From contig MHOO01000011.1 of NCBI GenBank assembly GCA_001820095.1, forward strand, positions 135,227-199,226: 64,000 nucleotides of DNA, written 5' to 3'. The notes under the pieces were generated by a model, which saw nothing but the letters and a program-made list of their open reading frames with translations, made no database searches and had not been told where the DNA came from. Source of the DNA: Candidatus Staskawiczbacteria bacterium RIFCSPHIGHO2_01_FULL_39_25. GTDB taxonomy: Bacteria > Patescibacteriota > Minisyncoccia > Minisyncoccales > Staskawiczbacteraceae. The translations under genes and the position numbers were made by a program. Positions 2,862 to 60,365 of this stretch are shown here, piece after piece (positions within the stretch are counted from its first letter, which is position 1; each line of letters starts with the position of its first letter).

Positions 2862-2988
2862 TTAAAACTAGAATCTTGAATTTTGTATCTTGAAGCTTGA
2901 ATTGAATAGTGAATTTGGAATGTGAATTGACTATTCTATATTCCGTATTCTATTCTAGATTCGAGATTCCAGATTCTAGATTCATAAT
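2862..2988 (-). repeat. Family-2 quasi-palindromic intergenic element, empty copy (inverted relative to the 32.4/42.4 kb copies)
   Basis: Its reverse complement aligns with 42441..42560 and with the two arms flanking 32505..32894 (GAATCTAGAATC.., TTCAATTCAAGCT.., CAAGATTC). Confidence 0.6.
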
Positions 2989-14763: not shown

Positions 14764-14779
14764 AAAATTCGTGAGTTAG

Positions 14780-16779: not shown

Positions 16780-17964
16780 ATGGCAAAAAAGAAAAAACCA
16801 AGAAAATTAAAAAAACCGAAGCCCTTAAAGAAGAAAAAAGTTTCCAGAAAACTTTCTAAGACAAGGAAGCGTAAACCGGCAAAAAGGGTTAAAAAGGAAA
16901 AAATTACCCAAGAGCAGATAGATGCCCTTTTACGCAAAGGTGAAGAGCGGGGTTTTTTGACGAACTCTGAAATACTGTATTTTTTCCCCAACATAGAAAG
17001 CAACGTGGACGAACTGGAAAGAATATACGATCTCTTAAAAGAGCGGGGGGTTGCGATACGGGAGGTAAGGGAATTCTTGGAAATAAAATCCAAGAAAGAA
17101 AAAAAAGCAAAGAAAGCGGTTTTAGGCAAAATTGACCCCATCCAAATGTACTTAAAAGAAATCGGCAGGTCGGGGTTTTTGTCGGCCAAGGAAGAAAAAG
17201 AGTTGGCCAAGCGCATTGAACATGGAGAAGAGGACGCAAAAAATAAATTGGCATTGGCAAACTTGAGGCTCGTGGTTTCTATTGCCAAAAAATACATCGG
17301 CAGGTCGCCAAACCTCACGTTATTGGACTTGATCCAAGAGGGAAACCTGGGGCTTTTTAAGGCCGTGAAAAAATTTGACTGGAGGAAGGGGTATAAATTT
17401 TCCACCTATGCAACCTGGTGGATCCGCCAGTCAATTACCCGCGCCTTAGCTGACCAGGCAAGAACCATCAGGATTCCCGTGCACATGATTGAAACTATTT
17501 CAAAGTACACTAAAATCAGGAGGAGCCTTTTGCAAGAACTGGGCCGGGAGCCTTTGGCAGAAGAAATTGCCGCTGAAATGGGGCTGGAAGTTGATAAAGT
17601 CCACCACATCAGGAAAATTGCCCAAAAAGCGGTTTCATTGGAGACTCCGATTGGAGAAGATAAAGACAAGCAAGACAGCGTATTGGCAGAATTCATTAAA
17701 GACGACAAGTCAATTGCGCCAAACACCGAGGCCTCCAGAAAACTGTTGAAAGAACGGTTAAAAGAAATTTCCAGCGAGCTTACCCAGCGGGAATTAAAAA
17801 TTTTGGGTATGCGGTTCGGTTTGGAAGACGGCGTTATGCATACCCTTGAAGAAACTGGTGAAGAATTCGGGGTTACCCGCGAAAGAATCAGGCAGATCCA
17901 GGCAAAAGCTTTAGAGAAACTGCGAAGGCATTCAGACCTGAAAAAAGTACGAGACTATTATTAA
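16780..17964 (+). CDS. rpoD: RNA polymerase primary sigma factor with a Lys-rich N-terminal extension
   Basis: Regions 2-4 ([29 protein letters not shown]); starts 3 nt after dnaG. Confidence 0.95.
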
Positions 17965-18100
17965 ATTTGAAATTTGAAATTTACAATTTGAAATCAATTT
18001 TAAATAACTAAATTTGAAATGATTAAAACCGACGTCGCCTTTTCAAATTAATATATTGTAGTATTGAATTCAAATTTCAAATTTCGAATTTCAAATTCAA
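17965..18100 (+). repeat. Family-1 (TTTGAAAT-type) quasi-palindromic intergenic element, copy 1
   Basis: Fills the rpoD-pyk gap; core GAAATGATTAAAACCGACGTCGCCTTTTCAAATT flanked by complementary TTTGAAAT/ATTTCAAA arms. Confidence 0.65.
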
Positions 18101-18106
18101 AACGCT

Positions 18107-19183
18107 ATGAATCCACGAATTATTGCAACGATAGGGCCTAAATCTGAAGAATATGACATCTTAAGCCAAATGGCTGCTGAAGGAATGAATATCATGCGGG
18201 TTAATTTTTCCCATGCCACAGAATCTCAATGGCATAAAATAAAAGATAATCTTGCAAGGATAAAAAAAGAAACCGGCGCCGATATAAAAATGATGGCAGA
18301 CCTCCAGGGCCCAAGGATACGCTTGGGAGTGTTGCAAAAAGATGTAGAAATTGTGAAGGGCGCTACGTATATATTTTTTTCAGGGAAAGCGAACGTTGCA
18401 AAAAATGAACTGCCTATAGATTACCCTGACCTCCATAAATTCATTAAACAGGGGCAACCGATGTATCTTTCAAACCGTTTGGTTGAGTTGCGGGTTGAAA
18501 AAGTATCGGGAAAGAAAATTTTTGCAAAAGCTGTTACGGGCGGAGTGGCCTCAAGCAGAAAAGGCATTAATGTTCCAGAGACCATTATTGCGGGCAGTGC
18601 CTTAACCAAGAAAGATATCAAAGACGCAAAATTTGTGGCAAAAAACGGCGCGGATTATGTGTGCCTTTCGTTTGTGCAAACCAGCAAAGATGTTGAGCAG
18701 CTAAGAAAAGCGCTGGCAGATGATGCTATAGATATTATTGCAAAAATAGAAAGGGCGTCGGCGTTAGACCACATTGACAGCATTATAAAAGCTTCCAATG
18801 GAATTATGATTGCCAGGGGGGATTTGGGGATTGAAATGCCCATAGAAGAGCTTACTATTATACAAAAAAACCTCATCCGCCATGCGCATCAATACAAAAG
18901 GCCTGCCATTGTGGCAACCCAGATGCTAGATTCCATGGCAAAAAATCCGTATCCTACGCGGGCAGAGGCCGCTGATGTAGCCAACGCCATTTTTGACGGG
19001 GCTGACGCCGTCATGCTTTCCGATGAAACGGCTTCCGGAAATTATCCGGTCATGGCGGTGTCTACCATGAAAAAAATTGCCAAGAAAGTAGATGAATACT
19101 TCAATAGCACTAACTATTTTGAGCAGGCCCATGGGGGTGTGGGACTTGAACAGAACCAGCTTGAGAAGCGAAAACAGAGATGA
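18107..19183 (+). CDS. pyk: Pyruvate kinase, short form lacking the C-terminal domain
   Basis: Barrel-domain motifs (MRVNFSHA, MIARGDLGIE, MLSDETASG); 358 aa; last ~17 codons lie in the 5' arm of the element at 19133..19399. Confidence 0.85.
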   Translation: MNPRIIATIGPKSEEYDILSQMAAEGMNIMRVNFSHATESQWHKIKDNLARIKKETGADIKMMADLQGPRIRLGVLQKDVEIVKGATYIFFSGKANVAKNELPIDYPDLHKFIKQGQPMYLSNRLVELRVEKVSGKKIFAKAVTGGVASSRKGINVPETIIAGSALTKKDIKDAKFVAKNGADYVCLSFVQTSKDVEQLRKALADDAIDIIAKIERASALDHIDSIIKASNGIMIARGDLGIEMPIEELTIIQKNLIRHAHQYKRPAIVATQMLDSMAKNPYPTRAEAADVANAIFDGADAVMLSDETASGNYPVMAVSTMKKIAKKVDEYFNSTNYFEQAHGGVGLEQNQLEKRKQR

Positions 19184-25351: not shown

Positions 25352-25715
25352 AAAAACAAAACCCCGTACGTTATTTGCGAGCAACCATCCGGAAGCCCAC
25401 GTACGAGGATTTACTTGTTACGACTTTAGTGTAGTCTATTAGATATTCTTTGTCAATAGTTTAATATAAACAGGTTAAACCTGTTTTTTTTGTTTCTGCT
25501 CGTGGAGTTAGGCTTAGCCTAGCTCCACTGGGTGTTTGTAAAAGTGTGAGTAAGGTGTGGGTAAGCGTATTAATAACTGTGTTTATAAAAACGGTAAAAA
25601 GATTGTAAAAACAATTAACGCCCCCTTAAAACTGCTGTAAAGTTATCCACATACTCTACATATATTGACAAGTTTTTTTATAGTATAATGAAAGAATTTA
25701 TATTCAAATGAAATA

Positions 25716-25817: not shown

Positions 25818-28800
25818 GTGAAAATTAACGAAGAAAAAGCCGAAATATTTTTAGACCCTGAAGATTCTAAGAAAAAGCTGTGGGCGGCTTCAGCAGATTT
25901 AATTTCCCTGTCAGAGGCTGCCAAGTTTACGCCCTACAGCGCAGAGTACTTAAGCTATCTCGCCCGCAAAGGAAAAATTGAAGCGGTAAAACTTTCGCGC
26001 GATTGGATGACCACCAAAGAAATTGTGGTTGAGTATGTTAAAGAACAGGAAGATCGGCAAAAAAAATTATCTGAAAGATTCCAGCAAGCCGAACAGTTCC
26101 GCCACCACGCCCAAGCCGGTTTTATTGGCATGAAAATATTAGCGGTAGCCAGCGCGGCTATGATGACGGTTTCCAGCGTACTGTCTCCAACGGTTACCGA
26201 ATATAAAAATCTGGCAGAAAAAGTTTCTGAACTACCAACAAAAGTTTCTGAAATTAAAATGCCGCAGATGCCAGAGATTCCCGAAATTACCCCCGCTGGC
26301 GTAAGCCAATCAACAGTAAATTACCTTACCACCATTAGCAACGCCGCAAACAACCATGCTGAAAATTTGGCGCGATCAGCAGGCAATAATCTAGCGAACT
26401 TAAGCATCTCTGTAAATAACAAAGCTGACAACTTAGCCAGGTCAGCGGGCAACGGCCTTGCCAATTTAAACCAATCAGTAAATGACGGCCTCATTAATTT
26501 AACCAAGCCGTTAACAGCTACGTTGCAAAGTTACAACGTGGGCAACATCAGCGGACGTTACAAAGTTGAAATTCCCGCGTCCGGCACCGCTAAAAAAAAT
26601 CAACTGGCCGTAGTACCAGCAACGCCAACAGCTCCAGCCGTCAAAGATTCTGCTACCACTGCTGCCACGGCTCCCGTAGTAACTTCTAAAGCGCCAAGCG
26701 TTGATGATATTATTGCTCAAAAATTACAGCTCATGCTGGCCCAGGGCCTTCTCACCGGCCCCGCAGGGCCTATTGGCCCAACCGGTCCAGCCGGGCTTCA
26801 AGGCCCTCTGGGTCCGGCAGGCCCGCAAGGGCCGGCGGGGTCTGGCATTGTTAGCAATGGCGGCGGCAGAACGAGCGCCGTAGTTGGAACCACTTCTATT
26901 GTAACGTACATACCCGCCAATCCGCCGGTAAACAATGGAGGCTCATCAATAGCAGGTTTTACCACTCTATCAGCAGACACCTTCAACACCAAAGATGCTA
27001 CGCTTAGCGGTTCATTAGCGGTTACAGGTACTTCCACGCTGGCAAGCATAACCGCTTCAGGCGCTGTAAACCTTACGGGAACTACCACCATTGCCGCGCT
27101 TACCACGACCACCTTAAACCCGGGCTTTACGGCCGGGTCCATTGTATTCCAAGGGGCTTCTAACTTGGCTCAAGACAACGCTAACTTCTTCTGGGATGAT
27201 ACCAACAATCGGCTAGGAATTGGCACGGCTAGCCCAGGCGCATTGCTGGACGTTCGCGGCGCGGCCATTTTCAACGAAGATGGCGCTGACGCGGATTTCC
27301 GCGTTGAAGGAGATACGGATGCCAACCTTTTGTTTATAGACGCTTCCACTGATCGCGTTGGCATTGGCACGGCCACGCCTTCAGCCCTATTCAGCGTTGG
27401 TAGTGGCAGCCCCTTCCAGGTTGATTCTTCCGGCAACATTGCTTCTTCCGGAACCACCGGCGTTACACTTTCCGGGGTTGGCGCCGACCTCACGTTCACA
27501 GGTACCGGCAACCATGATGTTTCGGCTTCGTCTGGAACACTGCGGGTTGGAGCCTCAACCATCATAGGCAATGTCCAAGCCGTAGATGATACTATAGACA
27601 TTGGTACGGCAGGTGTCCGGTTTGATAAAATCTACGCCAATGAAGTCAATGCCTCCATATTGGTGGGCACCATTAGCGGCGGCAATGTTCAGGCAGAAAC
27701 GTTAAGCATTAATTCTGACAACGCCACCGCTGATACCGAGGATGCCTTTTTAGCTTTTGAGCGCGGCACGGTTACCCCCAACGCCCTCTTGCAGTGGGAT
27801 GCTACCAGCGACCTGTTTGACTTCAACTCCCGCCTAAGGCTGACTGGCACCATCCTTGGCGACCCATCAATTATCTTTAACTCTGCTACCGCCAGCGATA
27901 CTGATTATTGGATTTCCCTGCAGGAAGACGGCGCCGGAGACGATGATGACACCTTTCAAATTGGCAAGGGTACAATACCGGGGACCAGCTCTTTTGTCAC
28001 TATCAACAAAGACGGCAACGTCGGGATTGGCACCTCAACGCCGATGTCAGCAGCAGGATTTCGCAAGGGACTAGAAATTGCTGCAGAGCCGAATACGTTT
28101 ACCCCATCACTAGTACTTCGAAGCACTGCCTCCACAAGTAATAATGCACAAATCATGTTTACGGGCCCCTCAGGAAATAACTGGGCAATTGGCACCGACG
28201 TAGCAAGCGGTTCTGGATCACGGGACTTCCATTTTTATGATCTGAACTCCTTAACGCTGAAGATGGTTGTACAGAGTAGTACTGGAAACGTCGGGATCGC
28301 TGACTCCTCTCCCGACGACCTCCTGAACATCCACTCCGCCTCCGCCGCCGCAGGGATGGCGATCACCAGCCTCGGCACCGACACCGACCCGTATATCAAG
28401 TTCGAGCTTGCAGATGGCACTCCCACCTTCACCATGGGCGTGGACGACTCGGACAGCGACAAATTCAAGATCAGCACGACGGCGCTGGGGACGAGTGATC
28501 GGTTGGTGATTGATTCGAGTGGAAATGTGGGCATCGGAGACACCTCCCCCGACGACCTCTTAAACATCCACTCCGCCACTGCCGCCGCAGGATTAGCGAT
28601 CACGAGCCTCGGCACCGACACCGACCCGTATATCAAGTTTGAACTCGCGGACGGCACCCCCACCTTCACCATGGGCGTGGACGATAGCGATTCTGACATG
28701 TTCAAGATTAGCACCACCGCCTTAGGAACAAGCGACCGGTTGGTCATTGATTCGAGCGGGAATGTAGGCATTGGCGATACCTCACCCGACGACCTATTAA

Positions 28801-31800
28801 ACATCCACTCCGCAAGCGCAGCCGCAGGCTTGGCGATCACGAGCCTCGGCACCGACACCGACCCCTATATCAAATTCGAACTTGCGGATGGTACATCCAC
28901 TTTCATTATGGGGGTAGATGATTCAGATTCCGACAAGTTCAAAATCAGCACAACGGCGTTGGGGACGAGTGATAGGTTCGTGATTGATAGCAGTGGGAAT
29001 GTGGGCGTCGGTAACACCGACCCGTATGCCCAATTCCATCTGGGTGCTCGCTACGCTGTAACGCCGACCAACATTACCAGTGCCAAGGCTGCCATCACCA
29101 ACGGTGCTCTGTACATTGGCACGACGGCCCAAGGCTCAAACAACACCAACGTCGATCTGCTTGAGTTAGGACACATTAAGACGGGCGCTTTCGGCGGCGG
29201 TTCGGTCAACATCAACTTCCGGGGCTTCGACGCCGGCAACGGTACGAACAGAGGTGTGCTTGCGCAAATCAATGGCGGTCAGAAAAATGACGATTTGGTC
29301 GGTTCTGGGTTCCTTGCATTTGGCGTAGCTGCTGATGAAGCTACGACTCCTACCGAGGCGATGCGGATTGTCGAAACTGGATTGATCGGAATCCAAAATA
29401 CCGATCCTTACGCAAGGCTTCATGTCGGAGCCAAGTACCCTTTTACTCCCACCGGAGCCACGAGTGGGAAAGCGGCGATCACTGGAGGAAGTTTGTTCAT
29501 AGGTACGTCAGCTCAAGCGGACCACAACCTCAACATCGACCTTTTGGACTTGACCCAAACGCAGAATGGAACAGTCAATGGTGGATCGGTCAATATTAAC
29601 TTCCGGGTCTATGATACCGGTAACAATAGCAACAAAGGTGTCTTAGCGCAGGTCGTTGGTGGGCGCAAAGATGGCATCTCAGCCGCTGGTTCGGGTTTCC
29701 TAGCATTCAAGACAGCGGCAGCTGCCGCAACAACATCAACCGAGAGGATGCGAATCGATGAAAACGGAAACGTCGGGATTGGTGACACTTCTCCCGATGA
29801 CCTTCTAAATATCTCCTCCGCTGCTGCGGAAGCCGGCATTGCGATCACCTCCCTTGGCACCGACACCGACCCGTATATCAAGTTTGAACTCGCGGACGGC
29901 ACCCCCACCTTCACCATGGGCGTGGACGATAGCGATTCTGACATGTTCAAGATTAGCACCACCGCCTTAGGAACAAGCGACCGGTTGGTCATTGATTCGA
30001 GCGGGAATGTAGGCATTGGGACGGCAAGCCCAACGGCATCCTTACACATTAAAGCAGGTACAGCCACCGCCAACACTGCTCCGCTTAAATTTAATTCAGG
30101 GACACTGCTTACCACTGCAGAAGCGGGAGCCGTAGAATTCTTAACCGACGCTTATTACGGAACCATCACCACGGGAGCCGCAAGAAAAACATTCGCATTT
30201 TTAGAAAGTCCAATCTTCACCGGCACCGTTACCATCCCAACTCCATTTACCCTTGGGGCTACTTCGGTAACTACTACCGGCACACAATTGAATTATCTCA
30301 ATGCGGCAACTGGAACCACGGGAACCGCCAGCACTAATCTGGTATTTTCAACTTCGCCAACTATTACAACTCCTATATTTACCACAAATATTACAACTCC
30401 ACTGGTGATTGGAGGCACGTCAACCACCGCTAACCTCACCTTGCAGACCACGACAGGCGTCGGCACGACAGGTGCGGATATGCACTTCCTTGTTGGGAAC
30501 GCTGGGGCGACGGAGGCGATGACGATTTTAAATAACGGAAACGTCGGGATTGGCGATACAGATCCTGGTTCTCTCCTCCAGGTGGCAGGAAGAATTATTG
30601 GTGGTGCGAACACAGCGCCATCATCAAATAATACTACGACTCCATTGTACTTATTCACGAGTGCTAACGGAGGCATTCGTTTGCATCCTTCTGCTGCAAC
30701 AAATAGCACTACTATTATAGACGTAAGCGATGCATCTACTCGATATGCCCAAATTCAATACGATGGCACTAATAGCATATTGAATATTTCAAGCCAACAA
30801 TCAACAACAGGACAAATTAAATTATCAACTGGTTCTGGAACCGAAGCAGTAAGGATTGATGCTTCTCAAAGAGTTGGCATCGGCACCACCGCCCCACAAT
30901 CATTGCTCGATGTTCAAGGACCAACAGGCACCGGAGCAGCAACTGCAGGTATCCTTACGTTAGCCACCAAAGAGCTTACTATTGTTGATGATGACCAATT
31001 AGGAAGAATTAATTTTAACGCCCCTCTTGAATCTGACGGCTCTGACGCTATCTTGGCGGGCGCAGCTATTTGGGCGGAAGCGGAAGCAACTTTTAGCTCC
31101 ACCGTCAACAACACAGCTTTGGTATTTGGAACCGCAACCACATCAGCGGCAGTTGAAAGAATGAGGATAGATGCGAGCGGGAATGTGGGGATCGGCGACA
31201 CTACGCCAAGTTATAAATTAGATGTTACTGGCGATGCTCACTTTACTGCTAATATGACGCTTGATGCTGGTCTTACGGTTGCTAGTACCGCCAGTATTGG
31301 AAGCACGGTGACTCCGTCAAATTCAACGTTATTTGTAAATGGAACACTGGCAATAGGATCAGACGCCCTAAATAACCGGTTTAGCACTACCACCAGCGGT
31401 ACCGGCTCCACCCAGATGTTTATTGGAAATTCTACCATTGATGTAACTGCCCCTTCTGACGTTATTACCAAGGAAAATATTGTTTCTACCCAGTATGGGC
31501 TCAATGACTTAATGAAGCTTTCTGTAAAAGAATTTAATTATAAAAAAGAGTATGTAGATGAAGGCGAAATGCAAAAGCTGCACACGGGAATGATTGCTCA
31601 AGAAGTAGAGCAAATTTTCCCCGAAGCTACTATATATAGGTCAGACGGATTAAAGTCTATTGATTACTCAAAAATGGTGCCGTTGCTTATTAAGTCTATC
31701 CAAGACTTGCGGCTGGAGTTTACTGCTGCTTTGGGAGATTACCTTGCAGCAAACCCAAATGCGCTTACGGGTAGTTCGGGGTCATTGTCTGAAATGAAGA

Positions 31801-32429
31801 GCCTGACATTGAGCGAGGATTTGACAGTAAAAGGAAAAGCGACGTTTGAGGGCGATGTTGACACCCAGGGAACGCTGACCTTAAGCAAGCAGCAGGGAGG
31901 GCTGGCTACTATTGGGGCTGGGGCAAAAGAGGTAAGCATTAACTTTAGCAAGCCGTTTGCCGCAAAACCAATTGTTACGGTAACGCCGGAGGGGGAGTCG
32001 GTGGTGTTCAGCACGTCTGACGTAAGCGCCACGAGCTTTACCATTAAGCTGGCGGTTCCGGCAACGTCTAACATCACCTTTGCCTGGATAGCGCTGGCGG
32101 TACAAGATGCAACTTCTATTAGTACGGGAGGTACGGGCAGTGTTGGCGGAATTTCTGGGTCTTCGGGTGGTTCTGGCTCTTCTACAACAGAGCCTGCGGA
32201 CTCTCCGGCGGCTGAAACTGATTCAACAGCAACAGAGACGCCTGCTGGTTCAGAAGCAGAAGAAACCTCTACTTCTGAAACTGAAACTGCGCCTTCTTCA
32301 GAAACTCCGGTTGCCGAAACTCCAGCCTCTGAACCTGCTTCTGAACCAGAACCAGCTCCAGAACCAGAGCCTGCTCCGGCTCCTGCACCAGAACCGACTC
32401 CCGAGCCAGCTCCAGAGCCAACACCGTAA
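25818..32429 (+). CDS. Giant (2203-aa) membrane-anchored fibre protein: HTH-like N-terminus, TM helix, collagen-like run, tail-fibre-type repeats, peptidase-S74-like chaperone module, lectin-like module, Pro/Glu/Ala-rich tail
   Basis: Uninterrupted 6.6-kb ORF (GTG start); 10 G-X-Y triplets at 26757-26846; 79-aa repeats; SDVITKENIV...MVPLLIKSIQDL module; PEPAPEP tail. Confidence 0.85.
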   Translation: MKINEEKAEIFLDPEDSKKKLWAASADLISLSEAAKFTPYSAEYLSYLARKGKIEAVKLSRDWMTTKEIVVEYVKEQEDRQKKLSERFQQAEQFRHHAQAGFIGMKILAVASAAMMTVSSVLSPTVTEYKNLAEKVSELPTKVSEIKMPQMPEIPEITPAGVSQSTVNYLTTISNAANNHAENLARSAGNNLANLSISVNNKADNLARSAGNGLANLNQSVNDGLINLTKPLTATLQSYNVGNISGRYKVEIPASGTAKKNQLAVVPATPTAPAVKDSATTAATAPVVTSKAPSVDDIIAQKLQLMLAQGLLTGPAGPIGPTGPAGLQGPLGPAGPQGPAGSGIVSNGGGRTSAVVGTTSIVTYIPANPPVNNGGSSIAGFTTLSADTFNTKDATLSGSLAVTGTSTLASITASGAVNLTGTTTIAALTTTTLNPGFTAGSIVFQGASNLAQDNANFFWDDTNNRLGIGTASPGALLDVRGAAIFNEDGADADFRVEGDTDANLLFIDASTDRVGIGTATPSALFSVGSGSPFQVDSSGNIASSGTTGVTLSGVGADLTFTGTGNHDVSASSGTLRVGASTIIGNVQAVDDTIDIGTAGVRFDKIYANEVNASILVGTISGGNVQAETLSINSDNATADTEDAFLAFERGTVTPNALLQWDATSDLFDFNSRLRLTGTILGDPSIIFNSATASDTDYWISLQEDGAGDDDDTFQIGKGTIPGTSSFVTINKDGNVGIGTSTPMSAAGFRKGLEIAAEPNTFTPSLVLRSTASTSNNAQIMFTGPSGNNWAIGTDVASGSGSRDFHFYDLNSLTLKMVVQSSTGNVGIADSSPDDLLNIHSASAAAGMAITSLGTDTDPYIKFELADGTPTFTMGVDDSDSDKFKISTTALGTSDRLVIDSSGNVGIGDTSPDDLLNIHSATAAAGLAITSLGTDTDPYIKFELADGTPTFTMGVDDSDSDMFKISTTALGTSDRLVIDSSGNVGIGDTSPDDLLNIHSASAAAGLAITSLGTDTDPYIKFELADGTSTFIMGVDDSDSDKFKISTTALGTSDRFVIDSSGNVGVGNTDPYAQFHLGARYAVTPTNITSAKAAITNGALYIGTTAQGSNNTNVDLLELGHIKTGAFGGGSVNINFRGFDAGNGTNRGVLAQINGGQKNDDLVGSGFLAFGVAADEATTPTEAMRIVETGLIGIQNTDPYARLHVGAKYPFTPTGATSGKAAITGGSLFIGTSAQADHNLNIDLLDLTQTQNGTVNGGSVNINFRVYDTGNNSNKGVLAQVVGGRKDGISAAGSGFLAFKTAAAAATTSTERMRIDENGNVGIGDTSPDDLLNISSAAAEAGIAITSLGTDTDPYIKFELADGTPTFTMGVDDSDSDMFKISTTALGTSDRLVIDSSGNVGIGTASPTASLHIKAGTATANTAPLKFNSGTLLTTAEAGAVEFLTDAYYGTITTGAARKTFAFLESPIFTGTVTIPTPFTLGATSVTTTGTQLNYLNAATGTTGTASTNLVFSTSPTITTPIFTTNITTPLVIGGTSTTANLTLQTTTGVGTTGADMHFLVGNAGATEAMTILNNGNVGIGDTDPGSLLQVAGRIIGGANTAPSSNNTTTPLYLFTSANGGIRLHPSAATNSTTIIDVSDASTRYAQIQYDGTNSILNISSQQSTTGQIKLSTGSGTEAVRIDASQRVGIGTTAPQSLLDVQGPTGTGAATAGILTLATKELTIVDDDQLGRINFNAPLESDGSDAILAGAAIWAEAEATFSSTVNNTALVFGTATTSAAVERMRIDASGNVGIGDTTPSYKLDVTGDAHFTANMTLDAGLTVASTASIGSTVTPSNSTLFVNGTLAIGSDALNNRFSTTTSGTGSTQMFIGNSTIDVTAPSDVITKENIVSTQYGLNDLMKLSVKEFNYKKEYVDEGEMQKLHTGMIAQEVEQIFPEATIYRSDGLKSIDYSKMVPLLIKSIQDLRLEFTAALGDYLAANPNALTGSSGSLSEMKSLTLSEDLTVKGKATFEGDVDTQGTLTLSKQQGGLATIGAGAKEVSINFSKPFAAKPIVTVTPEGESVVFSTSDVSATSFTIKLAVPATSNITFAWIALAVQDATSISTGGTGSVGGISGSSGGSGSSTTEPADSPAAETDSTATETPAGSEAEETSTSETETAPSSETPVAETPASEPASEPEPAPEPEPAPAPAPEPTPEPAPEPTP

Positions 32430-32448
32430 TAAATTTGAAATTTACAAT

Positions 32449-32948
32449 GAATCTTAGTCGAATCTAGAATCTTGTATCTTGTAGCTTGAATAGAATACGG
32501 AATTATGAATAACGATGAAAATAAAATTAAAAAATTCACTGACCTTCATGCTTGGCAGGAGGGGCATAAATTAGTCTTGATGGTATATAAAAATACTGAA
32601 AAATTTCCTGATAAAGAGCGGTTTGGAATTACAGATCAAATGAGAAGGGCGGTAGTTTCACTAACTTCTAATATAGCAGAAGGATTTTCAAGAAGATCGT
32701 CAAAAGAAAAGAACAGATTTTACTGCATGGCCCAAGCATCCTTAGTAGAACTGCAAAACCAACTTATTATATCCCGCGATATTGGTTACTTACCAAATGA
32801 TGATTTTAAAATTATTGCAGATCAGTCAATTGTAGCCAATAAACTTTTAAACGGGCTTTTAAAAGCCACAAAAGATAAAAAATTTGAGTTTTAAATTCTA
32901 GATTCCACATTCAATTCAAGCTTCTAAATACAAGATTCAAGATTCTTA
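32449..32948 (+). mobile_element. Family-2 quasi-palindromic element carrying a four-helix-bundle gene between its arms
   Basis: Left arm 32449-32504 and right arm 32895-32948 match the contiguous empty copies at 42441..42560 and 2862..2988 (inverted). Confidence 0.5.
32505..32894 (+). CDS. Four-helix-bundle protein (23S rRNA intervening-sequence protein family)
   Basis: 129 aa; FTDLHAWQEGHKL, ITDQMRRAVVSLTSNIAEGF and ASLVELQNQL motifs typical of the family. Confidence 0.85.
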   Translation: MNNDENKIKKFTDLHAWQEGHKLVLMVYKNTEKFPDKERFGITDQMRRAVVSLTSNIAEGFSRRSSKEKNRFYCMAQASLVELQNQLIISRDIGYLPNDDFKIIADQSIVANKLLNGLLKATKDKKFEF

Positions 32949-33001
32949 AGTTTAAATTATGGTATAATATAAGTAAGTAATATTATTAACTTAATATATG
33001 T

Positions 33002-33475
33002 ATGGATAAAAAAATTATCAAATGGGGCAGTTTGGGCGCTACGTTAGTTGTCTTAGCGGTTTTTTATGGAGTTTATCAATACTATATAACTAAGACACCA
33101 ACCTATAACGAGCAAAATAACACCGCTACTACCCAAAATGAAAGCAATGAGGCGGATATAGGCAATAATGCTGGCGGCGGTACGACGAATCTTACATATA
33201 CCCAAGCGGTAAAATTATATGTTGATAAAAGAATTCAATTCAATGACACCTGCGTGGCCTCTCCCAATTATGTGGTTTTCAAAAAAGGAACCACCATTAT
33301 GCTGGATAACCGGTCAAATAAACAGAGGGTTATCTCATTAGATGGCGTGAAATATAATTTGAAACCGTATGGTTTTGTGCTGGTTACCTTAACCACTACT
33401 GCTAAGCTACCTCATACCATTATGATTGATTGCGGTACGGGCCAAAATAACGCCAGAATACTTTTGCAAAGCTAG
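33002..33475 (+). CDS. Hypothetical membrane-anchored or secreted protein
   Basis: 157 aa; N-terminal TM helix, low-complexity linker, beta-rich C-terminal domain. Confidence 0.6.
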   Translation: MDKKIIKWGSLGATLVVLAVFYGVYQYYITKTPTYNEQNNTATTQNESNEADIGNNAGGGTTNLTYTQAVKLYVDKRIQFNDTCVASPNYVVFKKGTTIMLDNRSNKQRVISLDGVKYNLKPYGFVLVTLTTTAKLPHTIMIDCGTGQNNARILLQS

Positions 33476-33651: not shown

Positions 33652-33794
33652 AATTTGAAATTTTCAATTTGAAATTTGAAATCAATTTGAAATTATTGAA
33701 TTTGAAATGATTTAAACCCGGCGTCGTGTTTTCAAATTTAAATATTCAATCATTGAAATATTGAATTCAAATTTCAAATTTCAAATTGAAAATT
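33652..33794 (+). repeat. Family-1 quasi-palindromic intergenic element, copy 2
   Basis: Core GAAATGATTTAAACCCGGCGTCGTGTTTTCAAATT with TTTGAAAT/ATTTCAAA arms; ends about 10 nt before ATG 33804. Confidence 0.65.
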
Positions 33795-33803
33795 CGCAAA
33801 GAT

Positions 33804-34556: not shown

Positions 34557-34591
34557 TACTAATACTTGAATTTGAAATTGTAAATTTCAAA

Positions 34592-34727
34592 TTAAATCCG
34601 AAGCACGAAATCCGAAATCCGAAACAAATTCAAAATACCAAAATTAAAAATCAAAAAACACGTTTAGAATTTCCCGTCTTTAGAATTTAGATATTGTTTC
34701 GAATTTCGAGATTCGGATTTAGGGTTT
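34592..34727 (+). repeat. Family-3 quasi-palindromic intergenic element
   Basis: AAATCCGAAGCACGAAATCCGAAATCCGAAACAAAT ... ATTGTTTCGAATTTCGAGATTCGGATTT; homologous to 5098..5243 (inverted). Confidence 0.5.
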
Positions 34728-34803: not shown

Positions 34804-34812
34804 TGATATAAT
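34804..34812 (+). promoter_or_regulatory. Extended -10 promoter element (TGaTATAAT) 8 nt upstream of the giant-gene ATG
   Basis: TGATATAAT at 34804-34812; ATG at 34821; implies a leaderless or near-leaderless mRNA. Confidence 0.4.
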
Positions 34813-34820
34813 TGATAAAC

Positions 34821-37800
34821 ATGGTTCTGGGAATCCATATTTTGAAGTTGAAAAAAATACGTAAAAATACGCAGAAATTTTTTGGTATTTTTATATTGAT
34901 ATTCAGCATTTTTAATGTATTTTTAGCATTTCCCGCTAATAATGTCCTTGCCGTTACGGGAGCTCCTAAAATTTTATCCCAGCAGGGCAGATTGCTGAAC
35001 TCAAGCGGGGACTTGCTGGGCGGGTCATCGGGAACAGATTACTGCTTTAAGTTTTCCATTTACGACGCTTCAAGCAGTGGCACCAAACTGTGGCCTTCCG
35101 GATCTCCGTCCAGCATGACTTTTAATGTCAAAAATGGAGTATTTAACGCCTTAGTTGGCGATACGTCGGCTGGGGGAGATGTGCTGGATTACAATTTCCA
35201 AGATAATGATACGGTATATCTTAATGTGGAAGTTGCAACCAAGTCAGGATCCACCTGCGGCACGTTTGAAACATTAACACCACGCCAGCGCGTGGCGTCT
35301 TCTGGGTATTCATTAAATGCCAATACGGTAGGCGGGTTTACTCCCGCGCAATCGGCAACCGGAAATCAAATACCTGTTCTTACCTCCGGCAATCTTATTT
35401 TGGGATCGGGCGGCGGACTTGTCATTACCGGAGGAGCCGGCAATCCGACTGCTACCAATGGCACCGTTTGGTACGATACCACGGCCAATAAATACAAAAT
35501 TGTTGAAAATGGCACCGTAAAAACGCTTTGCAACACGACTGATGCGGGCTGTGGCGCGGGTGGCAGTGGCTCAACCCTTCAGGCCGCGTATGACGCTACC
35601 GGTGGCAATATCATCACAACTACGACCGCGAGGGATATAGACTTTGTGCTTGATAATACTGCCACTGATTCTAATTTTGATATTGATATTAACGCCGGCT
35701 CAACCTCTACAGTTTCAATTTCGCGGCTTGACGGGGCGGACACGGGATTTCCCGCCCAGCTTTTGCTTCTTGAAAATCTGGATACGACCGATGGGCCGGG
35801 GATGGGGCTCCTGATAACTTCGGTAGGAGCGCTTGATACCGCAATAGACCTTTCATCTGCTGCTATAGATACTGCCTTGAATGTAGGAGGCAATAACATC
35901 ATCGGCGGAACCGCCGGAATAACTTTTACGGACTTTATCTTAAGCACTGACGGAAAGATAACTTTTGCATCCGATACGACGGGCGACCAGATGTTCATTA
36001 CAGCTCCGTCGGTTAATTTTCAGGCGTTGGTGGTAGACGCAACCACGAATGATTCCACGCAAACGGAAGGAATGATTGATTTGAATGTTGACACGGCGAC
36101 CAATACCGCGATCGGCGGTCTCGCGCTTGATTTTGCCGTTAAAGACGCGGGGGGAAATTTAACCGTCTACGGAAACAGAACGAATGTGACGGTGGACACG
36201 GACACTGGGCAATCACACACCGTTGCTGGAGAATATATTGGCATCACCGCAAACGACGCGAGCTCAACTACTTACGGTTTGCAAATTGTCGCTGAAGATG
36301 CGGGCGAGCAAGTTGCGACCGCTGGGCTTTTGATTGAAAACTTGCAGGCGACAGACATTGATTTGACGGATGCCGTGCTCGTTCGCGCGACGACGGCGGA
36401 CTCCATCGTTGACGCTTTTGACGCGTCCGATACTGAAATCACCAACGCATTGAATGTCGGGGATAATATCGTAACGGGAGGAGACTGGACTGTCATCAAC
36501 GCCACTGATATTGCCGAAGGCCTCACCTTTACTCTCGCCGGCGGAATAGGCTTTGACATCACCGGTACTGCCGGCCAGGATTTCAGGGTTACCAACACCG
36601 GCGGATCAATCGCGCTTAATGCATCGGAGGCAATCGCGAACGCAATTGCTATTAATGCCTCTAACGCCGCCGGCGGAATTGATATTGATTACGGCACCGG
36701 CGATATCGTTATTTTGGGGACCGGCGTCGGCGCCGACTTCACCCTAGATGCTGATTTAATTTCAATAGACGGAACAGGAACTTCCAACTTTACCATCACC
36801 GGAGCGGTAGATGAAGATTTTACTATTGCTCAAGTTGGTAGCGCGGATAATTCTCTTATTATTTCTTCAACAGGTACAACGGGAGACGCTCTCCAAATTA
36901 AAACCACCGCGGGAGGAATTGATATTACTTCAACGGGTGCGGCCGCCGGGGAAGATATTGATATTACGACTAATGCGTCCGTTAATATTTTTTCCTCTGA
37001 AGCGGCGGTGTCGGACGCGATTAAACTTACTGCCTCGGATGCGGCGGGACAAATTTTCATTGACGCGGGTACGACGGACAAAACTGCGGATGCGATACGA
37101 TTTGATGTGGATATAAATTCGGCAAGCGTTGACGGACTGTTTATGGATTTGGATGTCGGCACGGCGCTCTCATCGGGCGAAATAGGAAATGGCTTAAATA
37201 TTGATGTGGCGGGCCTTGCCGGAGATAATGCGGCATCCGCGATAAATGCGATTTCGCTCACGGGAGATGTAACATCCGCAGGAACCGTAACCGCGATTGA
37301 ACTAAACGGCTCGTTTGACGACAGCATTGATTTATCGGGCGCTTCTACCACGATTGATATTCGTCTTGACGACGGACTTACTATTTCTCAAACATCAGAC
37401 GATGATTTGGATATTGTTGAAGGAAGCCAAACGCTTAATGTTGATTTTGCTGAAACGACTGCCAGCACCATCACGTTTGGAACAGCATCTAATTTAGAAT
37501 TTGAATCAACAGCAAATTCGGCCGCCTCGTTAAAACTTGAGTCAACTTTGGGCGGCATAGACATCTTTGCATCGGGAGCCGGAGCGGGAGAGGATATTGA
37601 TATTATGGCAACGGGGTCTTCTATAAATATTCAATCATCCGAAGCGATTTCTGACGCGATATTGATTGAAGCGACCGGCGCGGGCGGCTCAATGAGATTA
37701 ACTGCGGGAACGGGAGAGCCATCGGCGCTCACTGACGGAAGCGATATTGAATTTTTGACGACTGATGATATTCTTTTTACTCCCGCTGACGATGTATCTA

Positions 37801-42117: not shown

Positions 42118-42381
42118 ATGTACTATACATATGTAATGCGCAGTTCGAAAGATAATAAATTATACATTGGTTATACGAAAAATTTAAAGTTGAGATTTGA
42201 GCAACATAGCAAAGGTTTGGTAGACTCAACAAAGTACAGAAAACCATTTGTCGTAATTTATTATGAGGCATGTCAATATCAGAAGGATGCTTTAAGAAGG
42301 GAAAAATTTCTTAAAACATACCGTGGTACCCAGTTTTTACATAAGAGACTCAAATCTCATTTCACGGGGGCAAGCACATAA
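42118..42381 (+). CDS. Stand-alone GIY-YIG nuclease-domain protein (87 aa)
   Basis: YYTYVMRS...KLYIGYTKNLKLRFEQH...R.EK.LK pattern (GIY-YIG core). Confidence 0.85.
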   Translation: MYYTYVMRSSKDNKLYIGYTKNLKLRFEQHSKGLVDSTKYRKPFVVIYYEACQYQKDALRREKFLKTYRGTQFLHKRLKSHFTGAST

Positions 42382-42440: not shown

Positions 42441-42560
42441 TAGAATCTAGAATCTCGTATCTTGAATCTGGAATAGAATAAAGGAATGCTGAATTCAAAA
42501 AACTTCATATTCCAAATTCAAAATTCAATTCAAGCTACCAGATACTAAATTCAAGATTCA
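42441..42560 (+). repeat. Family-2 quasi-palindromic intergenic element, empty copy
   Basis: AGAATCTAGAATCTCGTATCTTGAATCTGGAATAGAATAAAGGAAT ... TTCCAAATTCAAAATTCAATTCAAGCT...CAAGATTC. Confidence 0.6.
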
Positions 42561-44555: not shown

Positions 44556-44591
44556 ATTAATTTTCAATTTTCAATTTTCAATCAATTTTCA

Positions 44592-45503
44592 ATGACACAA
44601 TTTACAAAGAAAAATTTATCTTTTTTCCTTCTGGTTGCTGGTTGCTGGTTGCTGGTTGCTACCCCTGCTCAAGCAGCCGAGGTTTTTTTTGGCGCTAACA
44701 GTAAAGAAGTGCAAGTAGACACCAAATTTGAAGTGGGGGTTTTTCTCAATGCCCAGGATCAATCGGTTAACGCCGTGGAAGCCCAGATTATTTTTCCCGC
44801 AGATTCCTTTGTATTTGAAGGCTTTCTTAGCGGGAACTCTGTTATTACCCTGTGGATTCAGCAGCCAAAATTAATTTCACCGGGAGTTATTTCATTTTCC
44901 GGTATTATGCCAGGAGGGTTCATGAGCCAGAAAGGATATCTGTTTTCCCTGATATTTAGAGCTGTTGAAACTGGCAATGCAACCATTGCTGCTGACCAAG
45001 AGAAGGTGCTTTTAGATGATGGAGAAGGTTCTGAAACCAGCATTTCCAAAGCTCCTTTGGCAATTAATATTGTAGAAAAAAGTTCTTCCCCTTTATTTAC
45101 TCCGCTTTATGATCCGGTGTTGCCGGAAGCATTTGAACCCCAAATCAGCAAAGATCCAAATGTATATGAAGAAAAATATTTTTTGACATTTGCCACTCAA
45201 GACAAAGACTCCGGAGTAGATTATTATGAGGTAATGGAGAGCGGCCAGTTCGGTTCATTTGCAAGCTTGTTGAAAAAGAGGCAATGGGTTCGGGCAGAAA
45301 GCCCTTATCTTTTGCAAGATCAATCATTAAAGAGCGTAATATCGGTGAAAGCCGTTGATAGAGCAGGGAATGAAAGGCTGGCAACTGTTAATGCGTCCAA
45401 TGGCTTTCCATGGTATGAGAATTATATTATTTGGATTATAATATTAATAATAATCGGGTCTTTGATGGTGATTTTTAAAAAGTTTCTATGGAAAAAGAAA
45501 TAA
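44592..45503 (+). CDS. Cohesin-domain protein with a C-terminal TM anchor
   Basis: Signal peptide, cohesin-like beta-sandwich pattern (FEVGVFLNA..VNAVEAQIIFP...GYLFSLIFRAVETGNATI), C-terminal TM IIWIIILIIIGSLMVIF. Confidence 0.72.
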   Translation: MTQFTKKNLSFFLLVAGCWLLVATPAQAAEVFFGANSKEVQVDTKFEVGVFLNAQDQSVNAVEAQIIFPADSFVFEGFLSGNSVITLWIQQPKLISPGVISFSGIMPGGFMSQKGYLFSLIFRAVETGNATIAADQEKVLLDDGEGSETSISKAPLAINIVEKSSSPLFTPLYDPVLPEAFEPQISKDPNVYEEKYFLTFATQDKDSGVDYYEVMESGQFGSFASLLKKRQWVRAESPYLLQDQSLKSVISVKAVDRAGNERLATVNASNGFPWYENYIIWIIILIIIGSLMVIFKKFLWKKK

Positions 45504-46519: not shown

Positions 46520-46520
46520 C

Positions 46521-46668: not shown

Positions 46669-46672
46669 TTTC

Positions 46673-60321: not shown

Positions 60322-60365
60322 GCGAATTTATTAGAAATTAGGAATTATAAATTAGAAATTAAGCC

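Follow-up and report, generated by a model that had tools for sequence, protein, structure and literature searches.

A four-helix-bundle gene between inverted heptad arrays at a protein-gene junction of a Staskawiczbacteria genome

The cassette and its ORF-less copies in the window

We analyzed a 64,000-nucleotide stretch (the window) of contig MHOO01000011.1 from Candidatus Staskawiczbacteria bacterium RIFCSPHIGHO2_01_FULL_39_25. The feature under study is built around a 390-nt ORF on the forward strand that encodes a 129-residue protein of the PF05635/TIGR02436 four-helix-bundle (4HB) family. In a profile search, PF05635 (23S_rRNA_IVP) matches the protein with E=1.8e-32 (112.2 bits against a cutoff of 33.8), the alignment spanning protein residues 13–117 and profile positions 2–106 of 106, and TIGR02436 matches with E=7.7e-30 (103.3 bits against a cutoff of 24). 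Both scores lie far above their cutoffs and bear out the assignment to the 23S-IVS-protein family made in a preliminary description of the sequence. Residues 2–121 are similar to PDB entry 2GSC_A (XCC0516; E=4.5e-24), which contains five chains. The dN/dS ratio against relatives is 0.03–0.12, with dS above 1, and by sequence comparison the protein is under strong purifying selection; one related copy (L017) is a pseudogene with an in-frame TAA. The family is very large, a single query returning 2067 relatives, and includes solved structures; to our knowledge, a function is known only for Avd of diversity-generating retroelements (DGRs).

The cassette does not interrupt an rRNA helix (23S helix 25 or 45) but sits between two protein ORFs, an upstream neighbor (25818–32429) that encodes a presumed surface protein of 2203 residues and a downstream neighbor at 33002–33475. 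The only Rfam match in the window is a tRNA, in keeping with the preliminary description, which placed this hairpin-with-ORF outside rRNA and directly after a giant gene. On either side, the ORF is bordered by arms made of degenerate heptads (Table 1). The left arm reads, unit by unit, GAATCTA GAATCTT GTATCTT GTAGCTT GAATA GAATACG GAATTAT GAAT, and the start codon falls within the last of these units; the right arm reads ATTCTAG ATTCCAC ATTCA ATTCAAG CTTCTAA ATACAAG ATTCAAG ATTC. The heptad consensus of the arms is G[A/T]AT-C/x-T-N, with positions 1–4 and 6 forming a conserved core and position 7 free. Autocorrelation at lag 7 is 0.55 for the left arm and 0.58 for the right, against ~0.2–0.3 at other lags (given for the left arm).

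The two arms, each 51 nt long and 384 nt apart, are 80% complementary and would pair in a pattern of ~6 bp followed by one mismatch in every 7-nt period. The inverted-repeat score of the flanks is 55 at the 4HB gene, compared with 32 for the next best of 51 window genes and a maximum of 30 in 1000 shuffles. The predicted RNA fold of positions 32430–32960 pairs the arms around the ORF at -116.6 kcal/mol (z=-4.0), and none of 100 shuffles folded as well. By score and predicted fold, the ORF occupies the loop of a long imperfect hairpin, as had been proposed. Terminal inverted repeats give a stem that encloses the ORF, as in an intervening sequence (IVS); tandem heptamers adjoin the start codon, as in Coxiella-type IVSs; and 7-nt units run head to tail in intergenic DNA, as in STRR-like SSRs, though here the units are degenerate. 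The spacer between the giant-gene stop and the left arm carries heptads of a different type and holds the -35-like half of a promoter-like match (TTTACA-18-TAGAAT, 32441–32470), which is a consensus match only. A AATTTAAAATTTACAAT stretch similar to this spacer precedes the cassette at locus L119.

Table 1 Coordinates of the cassette and of heptad arrays in the window
Feature	Position	Strand	Remarks
Spacer, giant-gene stop to left arm	32430..32459	+	different heptad type: AAATTTG AAATTTA CAAT
Left arm	32460-32504	+	~7 degenerate heptads; runs into ATGAAT up to 32510
4HB gene (129 aa)	32505..32894	+	PF05635, TIGR02436, 2GSC similarity, dN/dS
Right arm	32895-32945	+	inverted heptad array; begins directly after the TAA stop
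ORF-less copy, family 2	42441..42560	+	same orientation as cassette; ends 6-7 nt before ATG of gene 42567
ORF-less copy, family 2	2862..2988	-	inverted; fills spacer between 2255-2860 and 2991-3542 (LemA)
ORF-less heptad hairpin, other family	17955..18107		AATTTGA units; between rpoD-like 16780-17964 and pyruvate kinase 18107
Sister copies of 17955-18107	33652-33801, 46518-46670, 55205-55349		heptad arrays of AATTTGA units
ORF-less heptad hairpin, third family	34575..34724		AAATCCG units; fold z=-2.1, weak
Array related to 34575-34724	5100-5253		heptad array of AAATCCG units
Short heptad array	60326..60364		ATTAGAA units

Two further elements of the window have both arms and no ORF. By blastn, the copy at 42441–42560 matches left-arm positions 32460–32510 at 84.6% (E=1.4e-10) and the right arm at 82.4% (E=1.7e-9). 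The copy at 2862–2988 matches both arms (E-values of 1e-10 to 1e-12); it lies in the opposite orientation to the cassette and the first copy, scoring 138 in inverted and 96 in direct orientation. The arms had been described as matching the halves of these two elements, and the similarity survives blastn statistics; the halves are joined by roughly 10–20 nt, in agreement with the joint of only ~20 nt that had been given. A chance palindrome in AT-rich DNA is ruled out by the shuffles, the within-window gene controls, and the blastn E-values. Long hairpins are predicted for both copies (z -4.4 to -5.8) and for those with AATTTGA units (z -2.9 to -6.5). The unit of the short array at 60326–60364 is also the downstream-arm unit of a 4HB gene of a different subfamily (3614–3976 of L011, a related Staskawiczbacteria contig). 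Heptad arrays occupy ~10 spacers altogether, which identifies in CPR genomes a repeat class that fills about one in five to six spacers of this window.

Arm-ORF-arm cassettes in relatives, other phyla, and rRNA genes

The same arm-ORF-arm cassette is found at unrelated operon junctions in relatives. In L011, it lies between PrgI-like and TraC-like genes, has a 52-nt inverted repeat, and encodes a protein 91–92% identical to that of the window; this operon contains three 4HB genes, whose arms belong to three different families. At L014, the cassette is flanked by YqeY on one side and, on the other, by a 72-aa ORF that follows HisRS. An orthologous empty site of the window cassette was sought and not found: synteny comparison was feasible only against distant relatives, and among the fetched loci outside the same strain, the flanking 157-aa gene has no homologue and the giant-gene C-terminus a single weak match (L025). 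Repeat number, considered with phase variation in mind, did not vary in ten contigs from different samples, which are identical over 600 nt.

We surveyed 89 4HB genes from ~80 CPR species against 307 control ORFs, the genome scan using a narrower 4HB alignment because all three 4HB subfamilies together are too divergent. The median inverted-repeat score of the flanks is 29–31 for 4HB genes and 16 for controls (p=3e-24). Lag-7 autocorrelation reaches 0.475 upstream (p=1e-20) and 0.465 downstream (p=2e-16), compared with 0.32 in controls. The spacers around these genes measure ~40 nt and are taken up by the arms. In 82 of 85 cases the upstream neighbor points the same way as the 4HB gene, as does the downstream neighbor in 72 of 78. 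The upstream flank is richer in purines than the downstream flank at 64 of 89 CPR and 19 of 20 non-CPR loci. On the sense strand the polarity is fixed: the upstream arm is rich in purines and the downstream arm in pyrimidines.

The design extends to 4HB genes of at least five other bacterial phyla. Arrays of 7–8-nt units flank cyanobacterial, Bacteroidota, Gemmatimonadota, and alphaproteobacterial 4HB genes, one of which is within a genuine 23S IVS, and the period around 4HB genes is mostly 7 nt, sometimes 8–9 nt. About 18 of 20 non-CPR loci have such flanking arms, and arrays are rare elsewhere in these replicons; of seven in 97 kb, six lie within ~350 nt of the 4HB gene. Arm similarity withstands alignment statistics and the arms accompany other 4HB genes, the two points on which the preliminary description had staked its reading. 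The hairpin is not universal, because the arrays are direct rather than inverted at no fewer than two loci, in Pseudanabaena (L147) and Gemmatirosa (L165). In hosts that use Shine-Dalgarno motifs, upstream units contain GGAG and downstream units CTCC. Avd-type negative controls sought in a phage collection gave no match, and a paper on T4SS of Patescibacteria makes no mention of interspersed 4HB genes.

Instances within rRNA genes make the parallel with 23S IVSs, drawn in the preliminary description, a direct one. An Azospirillum 4HB ORF is located inside an LSU rRNA gene between inverted heptad arms of GACAGAG/GACGGAG units. The Coxiella IVS has a stem and heptamers (GACAGAT) by the S23p start codon, and its cleavage by RNase III has been demonstrated (PMC4990558). 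A CPR 23S gene (L105) carries an ORF-less GACAATT/TGTCAAA heptad hairpin in the ~100-nt interval where the Azospirillum IVS site is located.

A metagenome scan queried with the right arm only returned, for this one family, 42 distinct contexts, 4 ORF-bearing and 38 ORF-less, all with sharp ends and unrelated flanks. Together with the ~10 spacers of the window, they substantiate the proposal that such hairpins are a general, dispersed element class. ORF-less copies are 74 to 129 nt long, shortened by loss of inner units, and split roughly 24 to 9 between the two orientations relative to transcription; some copies contain a nested small GC-rich palindrome. In ~30 of 37 contexts, 4–12 nt separate the end of the element from the downstream ATG; at the other end, its distance to the upstream stop is -3 to +11 nt. 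The 38 ORF-less contexts with conserved ends are, as with MITEs, short multi-copy elements with terminal inverted repeats and no transposase; the only longer form in the scan (inner gap 413–417 nt) encodes the 4HB protein, and an autonomous, transposase-encoding parent that shares these ends was not found there. No consistent direct repeat that could mark a target-site duplication is present in the flanks of the 42 contexts, and no transposase was observed beside any of ~130 element copies. We infer movement only from dispersal, because target-site duplication, an empty-site allele, and population polymorphism were not found.

The arms are 84–91% identical to those of relatives, against only 36–66% identity at 4-fold sites, and core positions are nearly invariant in ORF-less copies too; on these alignments, the arms are under strong purifying selection. 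Across 32 copies, pairing holds for 78.9% of cells in register and for 23–47% when the arms are slid, and compensatory changes are not above shuffles. Variable heptad positions (7 and partly 5) are systematically mismatched in the stem alignment. Given the lack of covariation and the mismatched variable positions, pairing may simply follow from the conservation of two site arrays. Mismatches compatible with G-U pairing, sought as a sign of RNA-level selection, show no sense-strand bias (27 versus 33).

Interpretation and alternative explanations

On balance, and with moderate confidence, we interpret the feature as an IVS-type heptad-hairpin cassette outside rRNA, intercistronic and co-oriented with its neighbors, which belongs to a dispersed and mostly ORF-less family and works by the mechanism outlined below. 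The arms, the ORF-less copies, and the cross-phylum and rRNA IVS instances all point to this reading. ORF-less members look like internal-deletion, MITE-like derivatives. The protein had been called the cargo of such hairpins: it does travel with the arms, but cargo may understate its role, since protein and arms are both under strong purifying selection, and a cognate partner fits this joint conservation better than a passenger.

In the proposed mechanism, the cassette would be co-transcribed with its operon, and the arms would form a stem of roughly 45 bp with a mismatch at each seventh position, enclosing the ORF and partly burying its start codon. By analogy with rRNA IVSs, the stem would be an RNase III substrate, and the cassette would be cut out of the host transcript; such excision would make the element tolerable between essential genes and inside rRNA. 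The protein, a putative pentameric, Avd-like barrel, may then bind the repeats of its own arms, each protomer interface taking up one unit or one flipped-out mismatch, and may also bind ORF-less copies in trans. Such contacts could regulate how the RNA is processed or translated, or favor persistence and spread of the element. In the Avd pentamer, an RNA stem-loop is bound by all five protomers, with flipped-out bases between protomers (bioRxiv 10.1101/2023.10.23.563531). The surveyed arms hold 3 to 15 units and do not fit a simple 'five units per pentamer' rule.

An unlikely but serious alternative is a domesticated regulon, in which heptad hairpins are intercistronic regulatory or stability elements before start codons and the 4HB protein, a ring-shaped, trans-acting RNA regulator (TRAP-like) encoded by one 'master' copy, controls translation or decay of every gene that follows a cognate array. 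Structure near start codons should matter in this genome because it lacks Shine-Dalgarno motifs (found in only 5 of 51 genes), and the elements do end close to the downstream ATG; such spacing is expected anyway, however, when a ~100-nt element lies in the 10–50-nt spacers of a compact genome. The GGAG and CTCC units of SD-using hosts also agree with a regulon, as does a post-transcriptional role proposed by MacGregor for TAACTGA heptamers before Beggiatoaceae start codons (PMC4679880). A single ORF-bearing copy against many ORF-less ones, with purifying selection on the arms of both, is what a master regulator and its targets would leave, yet no functional theme unites the genes that follow the copies (LemA, a hypothetical protein, TraC-like, YqeY), and copies are found in either orientation. 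Regulation also gives no obvious reason for such an architecture inside rRNA genes, and the L017 copy is a pseudogene.

We regard as improbable a DNA-level foldback or MITE transposon, in which an unlinked transposase recognizes the units of the terminal arrays, the 4HB gene travels as a passenger, and folding of the RNA plays no part. The absence of both covariation and G-U strand bias speaks for it, and so do the sharp ends, the unrelated flanks, the many ORF-less copies in both orientations, the nested GC-rich palindrome, and the resemblance of the arms to multi-site transposon ends, which are arrays of conserved units. Against these stand the missing target-site duplications and transposases described above and an arm conservation that far exceeds that of decaying MITEs. 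A passenger gene also leaves unexplained the strong purifying selection on the protein and the recurrence of one protein family and one polarity within differing arm families in six phyla. An analogy with integron attC sites, which are hairpins with extrahelical bases, was rejected: no integrase is present, and the arms lie on both sides of the ORF.

DGRs are common in CPR, and the giant, presumed surface gene immediately upstream invites a reading of the 4HB gene as the Avd accessory protein of a DGR that targets it. The bAvd (PF22296) and DivGenRetAVD (NF033474) models do match, but weakly, at 23.7 bits against a cutoff of 40 and 24 bits against 80, whereas PF05635 and TIGR02436 score far above theirs. 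No reverse transcriptase was found within +/-10 kb (Pfam) or in 20 other window ORFs scanned. The only repeats that involve the giant gene lie within it, namely in-frame internal repeats and a P/E-rich tail; a TR/VR pair was not found, and elsewhere the same cassette is found between T4SS or housekeeping genes. We reject this extremely improbable reading as effectively refuted at the locus by the scanned ORFs without reverse transcriptase, the lack of TR/VR, and the sub-cutoff Avd models.

The IVS-type cassette has wider implications. For 30 years, intervening sequences in rRNA have been described as selfish elements whose origin is unknown, and we know of no accepted explanation for the excess of intergenic heptamer repeats in bacteria. 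This locus and ~110 related loci display one architecture common to rRNA IVSs, the PF05635 family, and bacterial heptamer repeats; therefore, each gains a testable partner, a protein for the repeats and repeats for the protein. New here are arms that are degenerate heptad arrays and an arm-ORF-arm cassette with ORF-less derivatives outside rRNA. The architecture also explains 4HB genes 'associated' with cas, T4SS, and ribonucleotide reductase operons as intercistronic inserts rather than functional partners. Among the cas cases, the gene order is cas6|4HB|cas4 in Anabaena sp. 90 and cas10|4HB|cmr3 in Picosynechococcus PCC 7003. More tentatively, and with less confidence than in the cassette itself, we suggest that PF05635 pentamers may be the cognate binders of 7–9-nt arrays and that cassettes and ORF-less derivatives may form one ancient cross-phylum system, selfish or co-opted, of which 23S/16S IVSs, STRR heptamers, and the bacterial heptamer excess would be manifestations; the distance between protomer interfaces on the barrel, as in Avd-RNA, would dictate the 7-nt period. 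Overall, the observation in the preliminary description is confirmed and its interpretation supported, each checkable part having held, with RNase III processing and mobility as its putative components.

Comparison with known systems

REP/BIME elements with RAYT are GC-rich palindromes of 20–40 nt associated with TnpA(REP), whereas the present elements are 74–150 nt long, AT-rich, and built of heptads; no HUH transposase occurs among annotated neighbors. Neisseria Correia elements (RNase III) and enterobacterial ERIC/IRU (RNase E) are closer, being likewise dispersed imperfect palindromes of 100–150 nt within transcription units, found in both orientations and with internal-segment length variants. 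Correia elements, however, have TA target duplications and IS-like ends, in contrast to the 7-nt-unit arms of heptad hairpins, which show no target-site duplication, and the 'full-length' heptad form encodes a 4HB protein, not a transposase. Eukaryotic Foldback (FB) transposons have long terminal inverted repeats of short tandem units, and most copies consist of two arms, few with a coding loop. This is an analogy only, across different domains of life and different proteins, and FB makes target duplications.

Heptanucleotide repeats include cyanobacterial STRR, Xanthomonas GGGAATC, Nostoc GGGGA(T/C)T, and Beggiatoaceae TAACTGA (PMC4692102, PMC4679880). As here, they are intergenic 7-nt arrays, often by start codons, sometimes paired as inverted arrays, and unexplained in function. 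Neither report mentions 4HB/S23p genes beside the repeats (PMC4692102, PMC4679880), whereas arrays at the loci examined here flank 4HB genes specifically; units in CPR are also more degenerate than classical SSRs. DGR Avd (bAvd, PDB 4DWL) shares a homologous four-helix-bundle fold in a basic pentameric barrel, but differs in its setting, as no RT, TR, or VR was found here and Avd-specific models fall below cutoff.

The closest relatives are rRNA IVSs. CPR rRNA genes contain 'uncharacterized short insertions' (PMC11270868). ORF-less IVSs of the Salmonella, Yersinia, and Campylobacter type are likewise extended hairpins of ~100 nt, the copies in the window differing in that they lie in mRNA spacers. 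ORF-bearing 23S IVSs (Leptospira, Coxiella burnetii, Xanthomonas, Brucella; S23p), for which alone RNase III excision has been shown experimentally (PMC4990558), encode the same protein family from an ORF at the stem apex and share with the cassette a poor or absent ribosome-binding context and, in Coxiella and Azospirillum, tandem heptamers by the start codon. The cassette departs from them in its position between protein genes and in its many ORF-less paralogues within the same genome.

Inverted heptad arms around a four-helix-bundle gene

Profile searches identify the window ORF as encoding a clear four-helix-bundle (4HB) protein of PF05635/TIGR02436. Among solved structures, Xanthomonas XCC0516 (2GSC, five chains; E=4.5e-24) is its nearest relative. 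This 129-aa protein occurs in the same form on 21 contigs from several samples. The preliminary description had placed the gene between inverted arms with empty copies elsewhere, and this observation is confirmed. The arms measure 51 nt and are 80% complementary, giving a flank inverted-repeat (IR) score of 55, versus 32 for the runner-up among 51 window genes and at most 30 in 1000 shuffles. They match the two halves of an ORF-less hairpin at E=1.4e-10 and 1.7e-9, a similarity that survives alignment statistics, and a second ORF-less copy is the same element, inverted. In a predicted RNA fold of 531 nt, the arms pair around the ORF (z=-4.0), and both ORF-less copies are predicted to form long hairpins.

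The arms consist of degenerate 7-nt units (left GAATCTA, GAATCTT, GTATCTT, GTAGCTT, etc.; right, their complements), with a lag-7 autocorrelation of 0.55–0.69 in 6/6 arms of the three window copies and about 0.2–0.3 at neighbouring lags. Across 32 distinct copies of this repeat family (family-2), heptad positions 1–4 and 6 hardly vary and form Watson-Crick pairs, while position 7 is nearly always mismatched (A.A, G.A, U.U) and position 5 often so, giving a potential stem in which each 7-nt period comprises about 6 bp and a single mismatch. When the arms of these copies are aligned in register, 78.9% of cells are paired, falling to 23–47% when one arm is slid. The 32 copies show no covariation above shuffles, and G-U-compatible mismatches have no sense-strand bias (27 vs 33). 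The arms are thus conserved as sequences, and the hairpin is real as a potential structure, without independent evolutionary support.

Window genes lie nearly all on the + strand and are chiefly housekeeping (GroEL, LemA, M48 peptidase, BacA, DnaG, RpoD-like, pyruvate kinase), plus two giant ORFs. A Shine-Dalgarno (SD)-like motif precedes only 5/51 genes; the organism seems to use SD-independent initiation, so structure near start codons is potentially important. The giant ORFs, each followed by a heptad element, have zero Pfam matches on record and end in P/E/A/T-rich tails; the first includes a stretch of collagen-like GPxGPx sequence as well as in-frame repeats of 237 nt, and a GIY-YIG ORF lies downstream of the second. 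Directly past the right arm, an extended -10-like TGGTATAAT ~30 nt 5' of the next gene may provide that gene with its own promoter. The window also contains a 31-nt IR (97% complementary, 207 nt between arms) unrelated to the heptad families, and GTGAGTTAGGCTAAGCCTAACTCCAGGCAA, present as two identical 30-nt copies 37 nt apart, each a small hairpin, with a 70%-identical copy upstream of the first giant gene.

Positions of the features discussed, in the window and in related contigs
Feature	Sequence	Position	Strand	Remark
Left arm	Window	32460-32510		Runs into the ATG of the ORF
4HB ORF	Window	32505-32894		
Right arm	Window	32895-32945		Begins directly past the TAA stop
ORF-less family-2 hairpin	Window	42441-42560		
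ORF-less family-2 hairpin	Window	2862-2988		Inverted
Further heptad arrays/hairpins	Window	17955-18107, 33652-33801, 46518-46670, 55205-55349; 34575-34724, 5100-5253; 44557-44594; 60326-60364		Last entry: ATTAGAA
First giant ORF	Window	25818-32429		2203 aa
Second giant ORF	Window	34812-42089		About 2420 aa
GIY-YIG ORF	Window	About 42118-42381		87 aa
-10-like TGGTATAAT	Window	32962-32970		
Gene past the -10-like motif	Window	33002-33475		
31-nt IR	Window	62893-62923 / 63131-63161		
GTGAGTTAGGCTAAGCCTAACTCCAGGCAA, identical pair	Window	Within 14779-14845		
GTGAGTTAGGCTAAGCCTAACTCCAGGCAA, diverged copy	Window	25503-25532		
4HB pseudogene	L017	3001-3390		
Nested GC-rich palindrome	L102	About 2470-2670	-	
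Nested GC-rich palindrome	L137	About 4670-4801		
Nested GC-rich palindrome	L129	1-113		
23S rRNA gene	L105	9559-14178	-	
ORF-less hairpin in 23S gene	L105	About 13735-13800		

ORF-less copies and related cassettes

A metagenome scan with a pattern from the right arm alone, hence blind to the ORF, returned 49 matches; together with the three window copies these represent 42 distinct contexts, of which 4 contain the ORF (inner gap 413–417 nt) and 38 lack it (74–129 nt). The copies have sharp ends (GAAT[C/A]T.GAAT... and ...ATTCAAGATTC), unrelated flanks and a common order of variant units, with 2–3 copies per 40–75 kb on several contigs and no target-site duplication visible in the 42 contexts. 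Their length variation consists of lost inner units, and the ORF-less copies would fit internal deletion from ORF-bearing forms. Copies lie in both orientations (forward to reverse roughly 24 : 9) and fill entire spacers, with the downstream ATG 4–12 nt from one end in about 30/37 contexts and, at the opposite end, an upstream stop at -3 to +11 nt, a fit that requires no special targeting because the genome is compact. A GC-rich palindrome of 35–51 nt (CCGCCC...GGGCGGG) is nested in family-2 hairpins of different contigs, in each at the identical point GTATCTTG^AAGCTGG, and has the look of another mobile hairpin, smaller than family-2 and targeting it.

About 10 window spacers are occupied by heptad arrays, which belong to at least four or five families. 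For at least four further families, with AATTTGA, AAATCCG, AATTTTC and ATTAGAA units in intercistronic spacers, the window has no cognate 4HB gene; in the related Staskawiczbacteria contig L011, a 120-aa 4HB gene of a different subfamily has an arm whose unit matches ATTAGAA.

L011 also carries the window cassette, here flanked by a PrgI-like and a TraC-like gene in a T4SS-like operon, with a protein 91–92% identical to the window's and nearly identical arms (52-nt IR). This operon contains three 4HB genes of three subfamilies (12–21% identity to the window protein), each at its own intercistronic junction and with its own arm family. In another relative, L014 (80–84% identical), the neighbours of the cassette are YqeY and a 72-aa ORF that lies downstream of HisRS. 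Between cassette copies, synonymous sites are saturated (dS above 1) with dN/dS of 0.03–0.12, and arms are 84–91% identical versus 36–66% at 4-fold sites, so that protein and arms are both under purifying selection. A further relative, L017, holds a gene copy (87% identical) with an in-frame TAA at codon 84, a pseudogene in a decaying cassette whose arms can still be recognised (IR score 41).

Short-period arrays beside 4HB genes of CPR and other bacteria

Such arms also flank other 4HB genes. Scanning one CPR genome per species yielded 80 loci from many lineages and, with 4HB genes found by HMM, 89 scored genes. Their median flank IR score is 29–31, against 16 for 307 control ORFs, several of which are 4HB genes themselves (MWU p=3e-24); scores of at least 30 occur in 45/89 (38 of the first 80, 47.5%) versus 7% of controls. 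Flank lag-7 autocorrelation is likewise raised (0.475 and 0.465 vs 0.32; p=1e-20, 2e-16). At about half of the strong-arm loci, inner arm ends overlap or lie within a few nt of start/stop codons, and the units vary with lineage (GAATxxx, GTATxxx, AATTATC, 9-nt CTAATTxxx). CPR 4HB genes are embedded in operons, co-oriented with the upstream neighbour in 82/85 cases and the downstream one in 72/78; because the surrounding spacers measure merely about 40 nt, the arms are the spacers.

A plasmid tblastn with the 4HB protein gave 33 records. Among 20 non-CPR loci examined by eye, about 18 have tandem 7-nt (sometimes 8-nt) arrays adjoining the ORF, mostly inverted, and two (L143, L162) have no flanking array. 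Units include TAGGGAG x9 / CCCTACT x4 in Nostoc edaphicum (between nrdB and nrdA), TAGGGTG / CTACACC in Calothrix, ACAGGTG / TGTCACC in Anabaena 90 (between cas6 and cas4), GGGAAAA / TTTTCCC in Geminocystis, CAGGAGT in Nostoc, Aulosira and Scytonema, and AAGGTTx in Riemerella; Leptolyngbya and Gemmatirosa have period 8. The hairpin is not obligatory for this association, since arrays are direct in Pseudanabaena (L147, AAAAGCT x15 / AAAAGCC x10) and Gemmatirosa (L165, CTCCTGCC units). Nor are such arrays common background: of the 7 present in 97 kb surrounding three non-CPR genes, 6 are no more than about 350 nt away from the 4HB gene. Sense-strand polarity, with a purine-rich upstream and a pyrimidine-rich downstream arm, holds at 64/89 CPR and 19/20 non-CPR loci; in SD-using hosts, GGAG falls in upstream units and CTCC in downstream units.

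Cassettes also lie among cas genes on cyanobacterial plasmids, between cas10 and cmr3 (L144) or cas6 and cas4 (L147, L152). This may account for the listing of '23S rRNA IVP' among CRISPR-linked genes (PMC10910872), which would then reflect an insertion habit and not a functional link.

Proposed excision and relation to rRNA intervening sequences

We propose that the cassette would be co-transcribed with its operon, that its arms would fold into a periodically mismatched stem around the ORF, and that RNase III would excise it from the transcript, as in rRNA. The encoded protein may bind the repeat arrays, because it is homologous to Avd, an RNA stem-loop binder. All five protomers of the Avd pentamer contact the RNA stem-loop, with flipped-out bases between protomers (bioRxiv 10.1101/2023.10.23.563531), and by analogy the regularly spaced arm mismatches would supply bases to flip out. 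A DGR/Avd role for the window gene itself was rejected: Avd-specific models score below their cutoffs, the window shows no TR/VR-like repeat, and no reverse transcriptase lies within 10 kb on either side or among the 20 other window ORFs scanned. The proposed mechanism as a whole is plausible but unproven.

A view of the arms as RNA elements only sits poorly with the absence of covariation and of G-U bias, with ORF-less copies in both orientations and with direct arrays at some loci. The main rivals to the proposed mechanism are a domesticated regulon, in which arrays placed directly before start codons would act as operators in a genome without SD motifs, and a foldback/MITE that works at the DNA level and carries the 4HB protein as a passenger. 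A passenger accounts poorly for the same protein family, in the same polarity, inside different arm families of six phyla.

The preliminary description had also read the cassette as an intervening sequence (IVS)-like design outside rRNA and its hairpins as a general class of element in the genome, an interpretation supported in all testable respects. In Azospirillum, a 4HB ORF lies inside an LSU rRNA gene (Rfam RF02541), so the locus is a true IVS; its flanks are inverted GACAGAG/GACGGAG heptads, resembling the GACAGAT heptamers beside the S23p start codon of the Coxiella IVS, which is excised by RNase III (PMC4990558). On L105, a CPR contig with an ORF-less family-2 copy, the 23S gene holds an ORF-less GACAATT x5 / TGTCAAA x4 hairpin within a roughly 100-nt interval containing the Azospirillum insertion point. 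This 23S gene also has another insertion, about 1.3 kb long and apart from the hairpin, that contains an ORF.

Earlier work describes S23p ORFs in 23S IVSs whose stems are inverted repeats and which RNase III excises (PMC4990558), 23S_rRNA_IVP ORFs in CPR 16S/23S insertions (PMC11270868) and the Avd homology of the family (PMC10053308). Cyanobacteria, Xanthomonas and Beggiatoaceae are also known to contain heptamer repeats, which those papers do not tie to the 4HB family (PMC4692102, PMC4679880). In the open-access literature we found no account of non-rRNA 4HB genes systematically within inverted short-period arrays of ORF-less derivatives, or of a link from heptamer repeats to the family. 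The finding reaches well past this window, and the window cassette and rRNA IVSs have an identical design, with arms enclosing a 4HB ORF.
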